64,000 nucleotides of DNA, taken from NCBI RefSeq assembly GCF_013122565.1, contig NZ_CP053258.1. The stretch is one strand, 5' to 3'. Each line of letters begins with the position of its first letter. The stretch's first letter is position 1. Origin of the DNA: Escherichia coli (GTDB lineage Bacteria; Pseudomonadota; Gammaproteobacteria; Enterobacterales; Enterobacteriaceae). Under the pieces are notes generated by a model. That model saw only the letters and a list, made by a program, of their open reading frames with translations. It searched no databases and had not been told where the DNA came from. Shown here one piece after another: positions 15,990-51,324 of this stretch. The translations under genes and the position numbers were made by a program.

Positions 15990-16307
15990 ATGGCTGAATG
16001 GAGCGGCGAATATATCAGCCCATACGCTGAGCACGGCAAGAAGAGTGAACAAGTCAAAAAGATTACGGTTTCCATTCCTCTTAAGGTGTTAAAAATCCTC
16101 ACCGATGAACGCACGCGTCGTCAGGTGAACAACCTGCGTCACGCGACCAACAGCGAGCTGCTGTGCGAAGCGTTTCTGCATGCCTTTACCGGGCAACCTT
16201 TGCCGGATGATGCCGATCTGCGTAAAGAGCGCAGCGACGAAATCCCGGAAGCGGCAAAAGAGATCATGCGTGAGATGGGGATTAACCCGGAGACGTGGGA
16301 ATACTAA
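15990..16307 (+). CDS. metJ: methionine repressor MetJ
   Basis: [66 protein letters not shown]...; 105 aa. Confidence 0.95.
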
Positions 16308-16335
16308 AGCGGAAAAGAGCGGCGCGGAGTGGAAT

Positions 16336-16434
16336 CGCCTGATGCGCTACGCTTATCAGGCCTACGTCATATTGCAATTTATTGAATTTGCACGAACTTG
16401 TAGGCCGGATAAGGCGTTCACGCCGCATCCGGCA
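16336..16434. repeat. BIME/REP palindromic units downstream of metJ
   Basis: Two inverted REP units (CGCCTGATGCGCTACGCTTATCAGGCCTAC ... GTAGGCCGGATAAGGCGTTCACGCCGCATCCGGCA). Confidence 0.85.
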
Positions 16435-16490
16435 TAAACAACGAGCACGTTGTCTGCGACCCACCGCTTTTTATACATGGACGTTTAACG

Positions 16491-17099
16491 ATGAAATACA
16501 GGCTACTGATCCTCAGTCTGCTGGTTTCTGTGCCTGCATTTGCCTGGCAACCACAAACCGGCGACATCATCTTTCAGATCTCTCGCTCATCGCAAAGTAA
16601 AGCGATCCAACTGGCGACCCATTCCGATTACAGCCACACCGGTATGCTGGTGATACGCAACAAAAAGCCCTACGTTTTTGAAGCGGTCGGCCCGGTGAAA
16701 TACACCCCGCTCAAGCAGTGGATCGCCCATGGTGAAAAGGGCAAATACGTTGTTCGCCGCGTTGAAGGCGGACTGAGTGTTGAACAACAGCAAAAACTGG
16801 CGCAAACGGCAAAACGTTATCTCGGCAAACCGTACGATTTCAGCTTCTCATGGAGCGACGATCGCCAGTACTGTTCGGAAGTGGTGTGGAAGGTTTACCA
16901 GAATGCGCTGGGAATGCGCGTGGGCGAACAGCAAAAGTTGAAAGAGTTCGACCTTAGTAACCCGCTGGTTCAGGCAAAGCTCAAAGAACGCTACGGCAAA
17001 AATATTCCGCTTGAGGAAACGGTGGTCTCACCACAAGCCGTTTTCGATGCGCCACAACTCACCACGGTTGCCAAAGAGTGGCCGCTGTTTTCCTGGTGA
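16491..17099 (+). CDS. yiiX: YiiX-family permuted papain-fold peptidase
   Basis: 202 aa with signal peptide MKYRLLILSLLVSVPAFA; synteny metJ-yiiX-rpmE. Confidence 0.9.
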   Translation: MKYRLLILSLLVSVPAFAWQPQTGDIIFQISRSSQSKAIQLATHSDYSHTGMLVIRNKKPYVFEAVGPVKYTPLKQWIAHGEKGKYVVRRVEGGLSVEQQQKLAQTAKRYLGKPYDFSFSWSDDRQYCSEVVWKVYQNALGMRVGEQQKLKEFDLSNPLVQAKLKERYGKNIPLEETVVSPQAVFDAPQLTTVAKEWPLFSW

Positions 17100-17159: not shown

Positions 17160-17411
<252 letters not shown>

Positions 17412-17415
17412 CTAA

Positions 17416-19773
<2,358 letters not shown>

Positions 19774-19928
19774 ACCGCTCACGATGCGAGGCGGATCGAA
19801 AAATTCAATATTCATCACACTTTTCATGAAAATTCTGTAACCGTTTTCACGCGCTATCTGCTAAAAATGTTGCCGATGTGAAGTAAACATGGATGTAGTA
19901 CGCCTGACGTGCCAGGCGAGGAGTGAGT

Positions 19929-22029: not shown

Positions 22030-22097
22030 TAATTGCATTATGCCCCGTACTTTTGTACGGGGTTTGTACTCTGTATTCGTAACCAAGGGGTCAGCTC

Positions 22098-22628
22098 GTG
22101 ACAACTATAGTAAGCGTACGCCGTAACGGCCATGTGGTCATCGCTGGTGATGGTCAGGCCACGTTGGGCAATACCGTAATGAAAGGCAACGTGAAAAAGG
22201 TCCGCCGTCTGTACAACGACAAAGTCATCGCGGGCTTTGCGGGCGGTACTGCGGATGCTTTTACGCTGTTCGAACTGTTTGAACGTAAACTGGAAATGCA
22301 TCAGGGCCATCTGGTCAAAGCCGCCGTTGAGCTGGCAAAAGACTGGCGTACCGATCGCATGCTGCGCAAACTTGAAGCACTGCTGGCAGTCGCGGATGAA
22401 ACCGCTTCGCTTATCATCACCGGTAACGGTGACGTGGTGCAGCCAGAAAACGATCTTATTGCTATCGGCTCCGGCGGCCCTTACGCCCAGGCTGCGGCGC
22501 GCGCACTGTTAGAAAATACTGAACTGAGTGCTCGTGAAATTGCTGAAAAGGCGTTGGATATTGCAGGCGATATTTGCATCTATACCAACCATTTCCACAC
22601 CATCGAAGAATTAAGCTACAAAGCGTAA
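22098..22628 (+). CDS. hslV: ATP-dependent protease subunit HslV
   Basis: 176 aa (M)[30 protein letters not shown]... Confidence 0.95.
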
Positions 22629-25054: not shown

Positions 25055-25540
25055 ATGAAATACGATACTTCCGAGCTTTGTGACATCTATCAAGAAGATG
25101 TTAACGTCGTGGAACCGCTGTTCTCCAACTTTGGCGGACGGGCGTCGTTTGGCGGACAAATAATCACGGTAAAATGTTTCGAGGACAACGGGTTGCTGTA
25201 CGATCTGCTCGAACAGAATGGCCGTGGTCGTGTTCTTGTCGTCGATGGCGGTGGTTCTGTTCGTCGCGCACTGGTCGATGCTGAACTGGCGAGTCTGGCA
25301 GTACAAAATGAATGGGAAGGTCTGGTCATTTACGGCGCGGTGCGTCAGGTAGATGACCTGGAAGAGCTGGATATCGGCATCCAGGCGATGGCGGCAATTC
25401 CGGTTGGTGCCGCTGGCGAAGGCATTGGCGAAAGCGATGTCCGCGTCAATTTTGGCGGTGTTACCTTCTTCTCCGGCGACCATCTTTATGCCGACAATAC
25501 CGGGATTATTCTTTCAGAAGATCCGCTGGATATTGAATAA
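25055..25540 (+). CDS. rraA: RNase E inhibitor RraA
   Basis: 161 aa [46 protein letters not shown]... Confidence 0.95.
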
Positions 25541-25557
25541 GTATCTGCCATGCGTTA

Positions 25558-25584
25558 AAAGGGGAATTAAATTCCCCTTTTTTA
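25558..25584 (+). terminator. rho-independent terminator after rraA
   Basis: GGGGAAT-TAA-ATTCCCC hairpin followed by TTTTTT. Confidence 0.75.
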
Positions 25585-25587
25585 TAC

Positions 25588-26274
25588 ATGGACGTATTCA
25601 TGCAGAATATTATTCTTTTATTTATATATTTATCACTTATAGTCGTTAACCATTTCCGCTACAAATTTCTTTTATCTGGCAACGCGGGTGAAATGATTTT
25701 ATATTTTGCTAACGTATTTTTTAACCCACTTGCCGTATCATTTATTATCGCCACAATCATCTGTATAACGATAAAAAAAAGAAGCAGCCGTAGCTTTATT
25801 CGCGGCACTTGTTGGTTAATGGGATTATTTCTTATCTATAGCAGCTATACGGTGTGGGAACGACACAGCACATGGGATTATACTTTCCCGGGGCCAGGTA
25901 TCACCGTCACGGTTCCGAGCAAACAGTGGGTTACCAATATAGTAGAACAAGGCCCCACCCTGGTGACTCGGGATGCCCATGCTATTTTAGCTATTGTTGC
26001 CTTCTCACAAAATGAACTCGGTGTGCATTCAATCGAGGAGCTTACCGCGACTCAAAACGGAACTGCAGAAATGCATATTTGTGATGTTCAGGGATTTACC
26101 TGTGTTTATCAGGAAGAACTGCAAACAATGAGTGATGGTAAAACAAGACATGCTATTTTCATGACTCTACTGGATAACACTAATTTGATACAACTGGTCG
26201 CAGCCATCGACCAAGATTATTTGGACGAATATCAAGAAGAAGTAATGAAAATGATGCTTTCTGCCCGTCAATGA
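25588..26274 (+). CDS. hypothetical membrane-anchored protein, paralog 1 of a tandem pair
   Basis: 228 aa, two N-terminal hydrophobic helices then ~150-aa soluble domain; AT-rich; alternative start ATG 25600; paralogous to the next ORF. Confidence 0.6.
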   Translation: MDVFMQNIILLFIYLSLIVVNHFRYKFLLSGNAGEMILYFANVFFNPLAVSFIIATIICITIKKRSSRSFIRGTCWLMGLFLIYSSYTVWERHSTWDYTFPGPGITVTVPSKQWVTNIVEQGPTLVTRDAHAILAIVAFSQNELGVHSIEELTATQNGTAEMHICDVQGFTCVYQEELQTMSDGKTRHAIFMTLLDNTNLIQLVAAIDQDYLDEYQEEVMKMMLSARQ

Positions 26275-26306
26275 TCTGATGTGCATATTAATAATAAGGG
26301 ATTGAT

Positions 26307-27023
26307 ATGAGATACGTTATCTTATTAATACTATGGTTAATAACTGCTTTTCTTAGTCATCTTCAGCACAGCAACCTACTATCTGGAGATCCTGGCATGG
26401 TTGGCGAGTATATCGGTTCAGTATTTCTGGGGCCGTTATTACTTCCCGTGCTTGTGTCAGGTATTCTGTGCGCATTCACTAAAAAAACGCGTAACTGCGC
26501 CAGTTTTACTCGCGGGTGCTGCTGGGTATTGGGAGTCCTGCTTTTATCCAACGTCGGCAATACGTTTCGTATGTTCACCCCGTGGCAATATACGTTTGAG
26601 AATGCCGCTATTTCCGTGACTGTCCCGAACCGACACTGGAATACGGTTTCCATTCGTACAGATAAAACCATTGATATAAGAAGTGAAGATAATAGCGTCT
26701 TTATTTCTGCTTTCCGCCTGCCCGCAGGACGTAGCGCCGATGACTCGCTGGAAGAGTTAAAGAAGATGCAGCGAGACAATCTCAAGGATCAATACAATGA
26801 AGAAACCTTCCAGTTTCATGATTGTCATGCCAAACATTTCACCTGTAAGTATCAGGATGTGTTGATAAATTTTGATGGTCAGCAGAAGAGAACCATCAGT
26901 GTTTATCTTGAAGACACCCCCAGAGCTGTGGGGATCATTGCATTAATGGAGCCAGATACGGTAGATAAATATCGCCAACAGGCGATGGAGATTATGTTGT
27001 CTGCTAAAAATGCAGTGAAGTAA
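26307..27023 (+). CDS. hypothetical membrane-anchored protein, paralog 2 of a tandem pair
   Basis: 238 aa; shares blocks with paralog 1 (LLSGxxG, RGxCWxxGxLL, IxVTVPxxxW, FTCxYQ, MLSA). Confidence 0.6.
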   Translation: MRYVILLILWLITAFLSHLQHSNLLSGDPGMVGEYIGSVFLGPLLLPVLVSGILCAFTKKTRNCASFTRGCCWVLGVLLLSNVGNTFRMFTPWQYTFENAAISVTVPNRHWNTVSIRTDKTIDIRSEDNSVFISAFRLPAGRSADDSLEELKKMQRDNLKDQYNEETFQFHDCHAKHFTCKYQDVLINFDGQQKRTISVYLEDTPRAVGIIALMEPDTVDKYRQQAMEIMLSAKNAVK

Positions 27024-27050
27024 AAATAAGGCGCCTTGCGGCGCCTCTGC
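27024..27050. terminator. hairpin between convergent paralog 2 and zapB (candidate bidirectional terminator)
   Basis: AGGCGCC-TTGC-GGCGCCT inverted repeat in the 37-nt convergent gap. Confidence 0.4.
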
Positions 27051-27060
27051 GTGGAAGAGA

Positions 27061-27369
<309 letters not shown>

Positions 27370-27731
27370 TTAATAAATACGAGCGCACTTTAGTTAGCTC
27401 CGATTGTATGAAGCCGCGCCATCGCTGTCCAGCGGCACGCCTTGCAGATTACGGTTTGCCACACTTTTCATCCTTCTCCTGGAGACATAATCCACACCAA
27501 TCGAAAATGTTAATAAATTTGTTGCGCGAATGATCTAACAAACATGCATGATGTACAATCAGATGGAATAAATGGCGCGATAACGCTCATTTTATGACGA
27601 AGCACACACATTTTAAGTTCGATATTTCTCGTTTTTGCTCGTTAACGATAAGTTTACAGCATGCCTACAAGCATCGTGGAGGTCCGTGACTTTCACGCAT
27701 ACAACAAACATTAACTCTTCAGGATCCGATT

Positions 27732-32195: not shown

Positions 32196-32624
32196 TTACT
32201 TATCGATAAACGGCACGATGAGCAAATCCGCACTCATCTTATTGATCATCCCGCGATATGCCGGCATCAAACGGTTGATAAATGAGTGATGATGACCACA
32301 GACAAGGAGGTCGCACTGCTCTTTTTGCATAATTTCCAGCAGTGTTTCCGGCATTTCTCCGCGTTCAATACGCAGTTTTGTCTTCGGCCATTGAATATTT
32401 TTCGTCAGTTTATACAGCTTGTTATCCGACTTATTCTTCAACAATTGAAGAATATCTTCTGTTGCAGGGAAGTAGATACCCGGATACAACTCGCTTAAGC
32501 CATCATCAATATGAATTAACGTCAGGTGAGCGTCATTATGTCTGGCGAGCTCCAGAGCTTTATTCACCAGTAAGGCATCTTCTTCATTCCCGGAAATTGC
32601 CACGCCAATGTGTTTATAAGCCAT
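32196..32624 (-). CDS. uspD: universal stress protein D
   Basis: 142 aa [40 protein letters not shown]... Confidence 0.93.
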
Positions 32625-42325: not shown

Positions 42326-42409
42326 GTAGGCAGGATAAGGCGTTTACGCCGCATCCGGCATTTGAGCAGGATGCCTGATGCGATGCTGGTAGCGTCTTAT
42401 CAGGCCTAC
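42326..42409. repeat. BIME/REP palindromic units downstream of cpxA
   Basis: GTAGGCAGGATAAGGCGTTTACGCCGCATCCGGCA ... GCCTGATGCGATGCTGGTAGCGTCTTATCAGGCCTAC. Confidence 0.85.
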
Positions 42410-51198: not shown

Positions 51199-51324
51199 GC
51201 CGGATGCGGCGCGAGCGCCTTATCCGGCCTACAGGTCGGCAACAGTTGTAGGCCTGATAAGACGCGACAGCGTCGCATCAGGCATTGATTGCCGGATGCG
51301 GCACGAGTGCCTTATCCGGCCTAC
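51199..51324. repeat. BIME with three REP units between rhaA and rhaD
   Basis: GCCGGATGCGGCGCGAGCGCCTTATCCGGCCTAC / GTAGGCCTGATAAGACGCGACAGCGTCGCATCAGGC / GCCGGATGCGGCACGAGTGCCTTATCCGGCCTAC. Confidence 0.9.

Follow-up and report, generated by a model that had tools for sequence, protein, structure and literature searches.

The question raised by this locus is why two unrelated genes in one stretch of Escherichia coli DNA should carry the same 17 nucleotides immediately upstream of their start codons. In the window, by which we mean the whole stretch of DNA that was analysed (64 kb), the string TTTTTATACATGGACGT was found in two exact copies, at 16468-16484 and 25579-25595 and both on the + strand, and no further copies were observed in the window even when up to two mismatches were allowed. 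Both positions had been given in a preliminary description of this DNA and were confirmed when the exact string was read again at the two sites. Six nucleotides separate the first copy from the ATG of yiiX (16491) and four separate the second from the ATG at 25600; a further, in-frame ATG (25588) lies within the second copy. These spacings and the internal ATG had also been described correctly. Sequence identity between the two sites is confined to the 17-mer, with unrelated flanks on both sides. The downstream proteins are unrelated as well, as was claimed earlier, since YiiX is a Peptidase_C92 member and the protein encoded after the second copy has no Pfam match. The gene order in the window is metL-metB-metJ-yiiX-rpmE-priA-cytR-ftsN-hslVU-menA-rraA-(two ORFs)-zapB-glpFKX, where the two ORFs between rraA and zapB form the island that carries the second copy.

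The explanation that we consider likely is that the 17-mer consists of two ordinary elements joined together, which arose independently at the two loci through convergence on an operator type already known, helped by some chance. Bases 1-5 (UUUUU) would be the end of the U-tract of an upstream Rho-independent terminator, that of metJ at yiiX and that of rraA at the island. Bases 6-17 (AUACAUGGACGU) would be the translation-initiation operator of the downstream gene, in which the Shine-Dalgarno GGA lies within a near-consensus CsrA site. The features of the yiiX site, all on the + strand, are as follows.

16308-16330, + strand: A-tract and left arm of the metJ intrinsic terminator, from alignment with REP-less strains
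16337-16457, + strand: REP/BIME elements within the metJ terminator, from repeat families; polymorphic among E. coli
16461-16472, + strand: right arm (CCACCGC) and T-tract of the metJ terminator, from strain and outgroup alignments
16468-16484, + strand: copy 1 of the 17-mer, exact match, in the yiiX leader
16473-16484, + strand: AUACAUGGACGU, CsrA-type site over the yiiX Shine-Dalgarno GGA (16479-16481), from consensus match and CLIP-seq
16477-16488, + strand: upstream mini-ORF of three codons, ATG GAC GTT TAA, from reading of the sequence
16491-17099, + strand: yiiX, 202 aa, a permuted papain-like Peptidase_C92 protein, from gene call and domain search

The TTTTT at 16468-16472 belongs to the metJ T-tract and forms the first five nucleotides of copy 1. 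In REP-less strains the metJ terminator was observed to be contiguous (AAAAGAGCGGCGCGGAGTTAACCAGCCGCTTTTTT; fold of -22.8 kcal/mol), and an uninterrupted hairpin, AAAAGAGCGGCGCGGAGTTAACCAGCCGC followed by T6 or T7, is seen both in E. coli without REP and in other genera. In this strain and in K-12, a REP/BIME insertion separates the two arms of the terminator. A match to the Rfam sRNA family ES036 (CssrF) was also observed inside the REP/BIME segment, at 16358-16399 on the - strand. The full query for this region was covered in 2811 of 5425 genomes and, among the shorter matches listed, the start fell at query positions 162-169 (window 16461-16468). The GGA is located 9 nt upstream of the yiiX start codon. 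The mini-ORF was made by the Escherichia change from AAGGA to ATGGA and is absent from the outgroups and from the O157 haplotype.

The second site lies at the left end of the rraA-zapB island, where the following features, again all on the + strand, were identified.

25055-25540, + strand: rraA, from gene call
25539-27064, + strand: island-specific segment of 1.5 kb, from comparison of the window and O157 with the empty-site strain USML2
25557-25583, + strand: rraA intrinsic terminator, island allele, with A-tract, GGGGAATT/AAATTCCCC stem-loop and T6 (25578-25583), from scan and fold
25579-25595, + strand: copy 2 of the 17-mer, exact match, in the island leader
25584-25595, + strand: AUACAUGGACGU, predicted CsrA-type site over a Shine-Dalgarno-like GGA (25590-25592); the same 12-mer as at yiiX
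25594-25610, + strand: predicted hairpin GUAUUC-AUGCA-GAAUAU with the start codon in its loop, from RNAalifold on five island leaders
25600-26274, + strand: island paralog 1, 224 aa from the RefSeq start, from gene call
26307-27023, + strand: island paralog 2, 238 aa, from gene call

The island segment takes the place of the whole rraA-zapB spacer and of the final bases of the two flanking stop codons, and is carried by 658 of the 5426 complete E. coli genomes. Directly 3' of rraA, the terminator has the layout AAAA-GGGGAATT-AAATTCCCC-TTTTTT; its hairpin GGGGAATTAAATTCCCC is followed by T6, and this T-tract supplies the TTTTT of copy 2. The terminator scan matched 25561-25576, and an 81-nt fold gave -23.3 kcal/mol with a z-score of -4.4. 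As TTTTT is terminator T-tract at both sites, five of the 17 bases are generic terminator sequence. The 12-mer ATACATGGACGT carries the sole Shine-Dalgarno-like element (GGA) of each downstream gene, and at the island this GGA is found 7 nt upstream of the start codon. A search for a sigma-70 promoter inside the 17-mer and in the stretch from rraA to the island ORF found none. Rfam searches by gathering threshold and by E-value gave no family at the yiiX site, at the island site or at the marine repeats discussed below.

The two island paralogs are 31% identical to each other, and no match was found for the island proteins in Pfam, NCBIfam or PADLOC. The family is represented by only 32 proteins among 1.84 billion clustered proteins. 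A start at the upstream ATG (25588), which would give M-D-V-F-M, was rejected because AAG is present there in the distant ortholog L046; lacking the upstream ATG, this ortholog points to 25600 as the likely start. The leader of L046 reads T6-ATACAAGGATGTATTT-ATG and that of a second distant island, L047, reads T6-ATATATGGATGTATAT-ATG. In E. coli, E. albertii and Superficieibacter the island leader CCCTTTTTTATACATGGACGTAT was observed to be identical, with paralog-1 proteins that are only 34% identical, and the sequence just 3' of the rraA stop codon is scrambled between the two genera. The terminator stem in Superficieibacter contains a compensatory G-C to A-U change and the start-codon hairpin shows compensatory changes in two pairs among the five island leaders (RNAalifold). 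The terminator, the Shine-Dalgarno element and the start-codon hairpin could by themselves explain the conservation of the island leader.

The 12-mer resembles the sites recognized by CsrA. The SELEX consensus for this protein, attributed to Dubey et al. (2005), is RUACARGGAUGU with ACA and GGA invariant, and the in vivo CLIP-seq motif is AuGGAug within a short stem-loop (Potts et al. 2017). In both copies, AUACAUGGACGU agrees with RUACARGGAUGU at 10 of 12 positions with ACA, GGA and GU intact, and the O157 haplotype of the yiiX leader agrees at 11 of 12. The L046 island leader (AUACAAGGAUGU) matches at all 12 positions, for which we calculated a chance of about 6e-6 in a 25-nt leader, and the L047 leader (AUAUAUGGAUGU) matches at 10 of 12 with AUA in place of the invariant ACA.

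In K-12, CsrA crosslinks in vivo to the yiiX leader, where CLIP-seq peak_403 (4127842-4128117; logFC 2.11; padj 2.2e-16) extends from the metJ 3' end to yiiX +52 and has its read maximum at peakStart+53, which is yiiX position -1, with a mean read length of 17 nt (Potts et al. 2017, Supplementary Data 1). The GGA nearest to this summit is that of the 12-mer (-12 to -10), 9-11 nt away, and the next one is located about 83 nt away. The earlier suggestion of a shared regulatory or ribosome-binding element is thereby supported in a particular form, a T-tract followed by a CsrA-like site over the GGA, with the yiiX copy under the CLIP-seq summit. In the csrA mutant data of that study, neither the RNA level nor the ribosome occupancy nor the translation efficiency of yiiX changed significantly (class NS; Supplementary Data 2), and nothing useful linking yiiX with CsrA was found in main-text literature. 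The CsrA peak at yiiX is thus already published, and what we add is the predicted CsrA-type site in front of the island gene pair.

Five consensus-like sites of the window with ACA and GGA exist in K-12, of which three (yiiX, cytR and the fpr 3'UTR) are located in CLIP peaks. The sites at window 4461 and 39557 lie outside CLIP peaks, and the two further sites inside peaks are given here.

19885, + strand: cytR AAACAUGGAUGU, consensus-like with ACA and GGA intact, in a CLIP peak
32300, + strand: fpr 3'UTR AGACAAGGAGGU, consensus-like with ACA and GGA intact, in a CLIP peak

Sites with at most two mismatches to the consensus are not enriched across the window (15 found against 10.3 expected). 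Beyond the window, the CLIP-bound leader of yigG (AUACAAGGAUGU) is the same 12-mer as the L046 island leader, and the CLIP-bound leader of yjfL (UACAAGGACGUUUA) matches the ancestral-type yiiX leader. These identities suggest that long shared strings recur among CsrA-bound leaders as a by-product of the long consensus.

We also looked at how the GGA might be presented. In the island leaders, AUAC and GUAU could form a 4-bp stem with AUGGAC as its loop. Both RNAfold and RNAalifold prefer to pair CAUGG with an upstream CCAUG, as an outer stem around the terminator, and GUAU within the start-codon hairpin. In yiiX, GUUU is present and therefore only three of the four AUAC/GUAU pairs could form. 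No obvious second single-stranded GGA was observed near the island site.

The history of the yiiX leader was followed across genera. The two Citrobacter species nearest to E. coli have T7-AATGGTGTAACAAGGACGTT...ATG with a canonical AAGGA, and the outgroup type in Citrobacter, Pseudocitrobacter and Klebsiella is T7-AATGGTGTAACAAGGACGT, with close variants. Variant leaders that retain ACA-n-GGA-n-GU were found in C. freundii, Pseudocitrobacter and Klebsiella, and the columns A-ACA-n-GGA-n-GTT are invariant over five genera. This invariance of ACA-n-GGA-n-GU appears to reflect an information-rich CsrA motif that goes beyond a mere Shine-Dalgarno element. Relative to the outgroups, the Escherichia leaders differ by a 7-nt deletion, an A-to-T change giving ATAC and a polymorphic A-to-T change that turns AAGGA into ATGGA. 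The outgroup genera indicate that the yiiX copy was formed locally by these Escherichia-specific mutations, and the two copies are not homologous. A recombination scar, which was one of the readings first proposed, does not agree with a yiiX copy built by local Escherichia mutations and an island copy that is conserved in other genera. Three haplotypes of the yiiX leader coexist in Escherichia and are distributed as follows.

T6-C-ATACAAGGACGT: O157 LSU61, two mismatches to the 17-mer, of the island-bearing O157 lineage
T6-C-ATACAAGGACGT: GPT24-02, two mismatches to the 17-mer, island present
T6-C-ATACATGGACGT: UPEC 26-1
T6-C-ATACATGGACGT: GF60, one mismatch to the 17-mer, island present
T5-7-ATACATGGACGT: K-12, exact 17-mer, island absent
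T5-7-ATACATGGACGT: this window, 10035776-3 and E. albertii, island present
T5-7-ATACATGGACGT: 2020N21-110-24, E. whittamii and Escherichia sp. E1V33

The exact yiiX match is lineage-specific and does not track carriage of the island. Aligning strains with and without the insertion, a check put forward with the preliminary description, shows the yiiX 17-mer in island-free K-12 and variation at this position among island-bearing strains. An insertion-site signature had also been suggested; the island copy lies inside island-specific DNA and the yiiX copy occurs in K-12, which lacks the island, and both observations speak against it.

How surprising a shared 17-mer is was estimated from shuffled windows, of which 7-9% contained at least one direct exact 17-mer pair. 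Outside REP, maximal repeats of lengths 12, 13, 14, 15, 16 and 17 number 175, 61, 25, 6, 1 and 1 in the real window against 69, 17, 4.2, 1.3, 0.2 and 0.12 in the shuffles, so that repeats of 12-15 nt are 2.5-6 times as frequent in the non-REP sequence as in the shuffles. From this comparison a single 17-mer is the natural tail of the distribution, and our own extrapolation from the repeat-length series gives roughly 0.3-0.5 expected 17-mer pairs in the real window. The zero expectation obtained from the window search applies to one given string and not to any 17-mer pair. The initial statement that such a 17-mer match would hardly arise by chance in 64 kb was therefore too strong. Less expected than the match itself is that both copies should be found in 5' leaders between a terminator and a start codon.

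When 100,044 species genomes (298 Gb) were searched for exact matches to the 17-mer, 24 were found, and a uniform expectation for a random 17-mer of this length in 298 Gb is about 35 by our own calculation. Two of the 24 are yiiX leaders (E. whittamii and Escherichia sp. E1V33) and one is the Superficieibacter island. Only these two Escherichia genomes were matched, with a single copy apiece. Escherichia does not carry the 17-mer as a dispersed repeat, and the possibility raised at the outset that it might be a common repeat at many unrelated loci is not borne out by so few matches.

Pure coincidence would mean that two AT-rich leaders each happen to have a weak Shine-Dalgarno GGA after a T-tract, with no CsrA at the island and a CLIP signal of no consequence at yiiX. 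The frequency of 17-mer pairs in the shuffles, together with short repeats that are several-fold commoner in the real sequence, would fit such an account, as would the lack of enrichment of consensus-like 12-mers in the window, the unaltered expression of yiiX in the csrA data and the restriction of exact identity to certain lineages. Nevertheless, we regard it as rather unlikely because the yiiX leader lies under the CLIP summit and an island ortholog (L046) matches an independently defined consensus at 12 of 12 positions, at a chance of about 6e-6 per 25-nt leader. Furthermore, the invariance in the yiiX leaders of five genera covers ACA-n-GGA-n-GU and not the GGA alone, and the island leader has remained unaltered while the proteins have diverged to 34% identity.

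An ectopic templated mutation, by microhomology-primed template switching or very short gene conversion with the island leader as template for yiiX, is improbable. It would require that in an island-bearing ancestor of Escherichia the stretch of the yiiX leader from the T-tract to GGACGT was overwritten once, and that later point mutations gave rise to the other haplotypes. The deletion and both substitutions in the Escherichia yiiX leader all shift it towards the island sequence, and under convergence this shared direction must be left to chance. The changed tract is also flanked by pre-existing microhomologies (T6-7A and GGACGT), the island leader is the older and invariant one, and both E. 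coli and E. albertii carry the island. On the other hand, the flanking microhomologies are only 6-8 nt long, and RecA-dependent conversion needs homology well over this length. The donor is 9.1 kb away on the same strand, which is far for replication template switching, the intermediate haplotypes fit stepwise change, and the exact yiiX state is not associated with carriage of the island. When gene conversion or duplication was examined as a tract, no homology was found past the 17-mer and the yiiX copy was seen to vary independently of the invariant island copy. Chance and consensus-driven convergence already account for the data. In its strictest form, in which a 12-nt CsrA operator would have been copied from the island to yiiX across 9 kb in one microhomology-primed step that replaced the canonical AAGGA, the idea is quite improbable; if it were true, operator copying of this kind would have moved a regulatory site from one gene to an unrelated one while the genes themselves did not recombine.

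That the 17-mer is a mobile or dispersed repeat, or the target-site or attachment signature of the island insertion, is extremely improbable, for although the island occupies the place of the rraA-zapB spacer and the 17-mer opens a tandem intergenic repeat at seven marine gammaproteobacterial loci, the right border of the island lacks a copy, the second copy is 9.1 kb off, the yiiX copy is present in island-free genomes, the 24 matches in 298 Gb are close to the roughly 35 expected under uniformity, each Escherichia genome matched having just one, no near-copies occur in the window, and the marine repeats share only the leader string with either locus.

Under the preferred reading, the convergence of two ordinary elements, transcripts leaving metJ or rraA would meet an attenuating terminator, which for metJ is broken by the REP in this strain and in K-12. 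Translation of the downstream cistron would start from a weak Shine-Dalgarno element, a GGA that also serves as CsrA operator, and CsrA bound to that GGA would compete with or occlude the ribosome. As one 12-nt consensus would constrain both leaders, a coincidence would have been needed only at three free positions and in the abutment of the T-tract, and it is found in some lineages only. At the island, binding of CsrA is predicted from the similarity of its leader to the consensus, and any regulatory effect of CsrA on yiiX or on the island gene is likewise putative.

The 17-mer match is uninformative on how the rraA-zapB island arrived. The leader of the two-gene island, with its terminator, CsrA-like operator and start-codon hairpin and its strong conservation, does suggest a concrete candidate for the regulator of these genes. 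In addition, the pairs yiiX/island, yiiX/yjfL and L046/yigG illustrate that convergence on a long protein-binding consensus can mimic homology, with identities of 12-17 nt.

Other operators were compared with the 17-mer by eye. MetJ boxes (AGACGTCT) gave only one half-site with 6 of 8 positions, and operators of CRP, CytR, GlpR, TyrR, TrpR and NanR did not fit; all were rejected. The marine repeat is a REP/BIME-like tandem repeat of 52 nt in Marinobacterium, Shewanella, Thalassotalea and Algicola which follows a terminator and starts with TTTATACATGGACGTATTTATCC, agreeing with the island leader at 20 of 21 positions, a similarity that was preselected by the exact-match search and drops to 7 of 12 bases past the 17-mer. 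The Escherichia sites differ from it in being single-copy, in functional leaders and without a repeat unit or array. We considered whether the marine arrays might be CsrA-titrating sponge RNAs, as GGA density is raised in three of the loci (L013, L012 and L020), and rejected this; GGA in most marine loci is not strand-specific and many GGAs are paired, so that the arrays look REP-like. A near-threshold Rfam match (ncS54) was observed in locus L018, in the upstream terminator region outside the repeat.

Classical CsrA sites that overlap the Shine-Dalgarno sequence are found in the glgC, cstA and hfq leaders. Closer in form are the Shine-Dalgarno sites of CsrA (RsmA) in the yigG, yjfL and cytR leaders, where, as at both of our sites, GGA is set in ACA-n-GGA-n-GU and located 4-10 nt before the start codon (Potts et al. 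2017). The sites described here differ from these in that the predicted folds do not clearly expose the GGA in a loop and that no clear second site is seen at the island, where the site is a predicted one; yiiX, for its part, showed no regulatory effect. Both sites also differ in abutting the T-tract of the terminator of the upstream gene. As for Rho-independent terminators, those of metJ and rraA have the usual GC-rich hairpin with A-tract and T-tract right after the stop codon. Unlike the usual arrangement, the hairpin upstream of yiiX is split by REP/BIME in this strain, and at both loci the T-tract runs directly into the translation-initiation region of the next gene, so that downstream expression presumably depends on read-through.

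The hairpin of the metJ terminator, the intrinsic terminator upstream of yiiX, was found to be split by a REP/BIME insertion at 16337-16457 of the window. This form was observed in 2811 of 5425 complete E. coli genomes (about half); in the remaining genomes the terminator is intact and located only 59 nt upstream of yiiX. Among the matches listed, the boundary of the polymorphism (query positions 162-169) falls either at the start of the 17-mer or 7 nt before it. The yiiX leader also carries a three-codon upstream ORF, ATG GAC GTT TAA (16477-16488), which originated in an Escherichia-specific AAGGA to ATGGA change in the Shine-Dalgarno sequence. Its stop codon lies 2 nt upstream of the yiiX ATG and the two frames might be coupled by termination-reinitiation.

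The tandem ORF pair of the island is located immediately 3' of rraA in E. coli, E. albertii, Superficieibacter and a more distant contig (L046), where the gene of an IS200-like Y1 transposase adjoins it. A single copy is visible in the distant locus L047, likewise after rraA, and the far flank in Superficieibacter is pfkA/fieF, not zapB. Loci of the family noticed are the window (25600-27023), L021 (11289-12754), L046, L047 and L048. The family is very small: 1.84 billion proteins contain 32 cluster representatives of it, and 21 of these reach E<=1e-10. The proteins have hydrophobic N-terminal regions and gave no match in Pfam, NCBIfam or PADLOC.

For O157 and E. albertii, RefSeq gives paralog 2 a length of 208 aa; the window ORF encodes 238 aa (26307-27023, compared with 1598-2224 of L001). 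Because the first 30 residues of the window protein align well to the N-terminus of paralog 1, the annotated start may be too far downstream; alternatively, the O157 and E. albertii alleles may differ at their 5' ends. Among 5426 complete E. coli genomes, the best match to the island allele (25400-27400) was 97.6% identical and paralog 1 shows at most 92% identity to any clustered protein. A 100% match to the metJ-yiiX segment (16300-16620) exists among the same genomes. These identities suggest that the alleles of the island are old or diverse relative to their core flanks.

Two sites resembling the CsrA consensus were noticed elsewhere in the window, both inside published K-12 CsrA CLIP-seq peaks:
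19885-19896, cytR leader, AAACATGGATGT, in peak_402
32300-32311, fpr 3'UTR, AGACAAGGAGGT, in peak_400
The zapB 5'UTR contains a further K-12 CsrA peak, peak_401. Rfam elements matched at gathering score were:
17379-17431, minus strand, L31 ribosomal-protein leader upstream of rpmE
22043-22100, plus strand, ClpQY (hslVU) promoter element
42329-42406, plus strand, naRNA4 (REP-derived)
51251-51321, minus strand, naRNA4 (REP-derived)

Intergenic repeats starting with the 17-mer, right behind a terminator, were observed at L008, L012, L013, L018, L019, L020 and L022. These loci belong to three Marinobacterium species, Shewanella atlantica, Thalassotalea and Algicola. At L013 the repeat is a tandem array:
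L013 8095-8369, 52-nt unit TTTATACATGGACGTATTTATCCTGCGATCACATGGAGGTGAATGAGTAGGG, 5.3 copies, 96% identity
The marine units are rich in hairpins, several with (A/U)GGA in their loops, and no Rfam family was found for them. Since GGA enrichment lacks strand specificity at most loci, these repeats seem to resemble REP elements and not a CsrA sponge.
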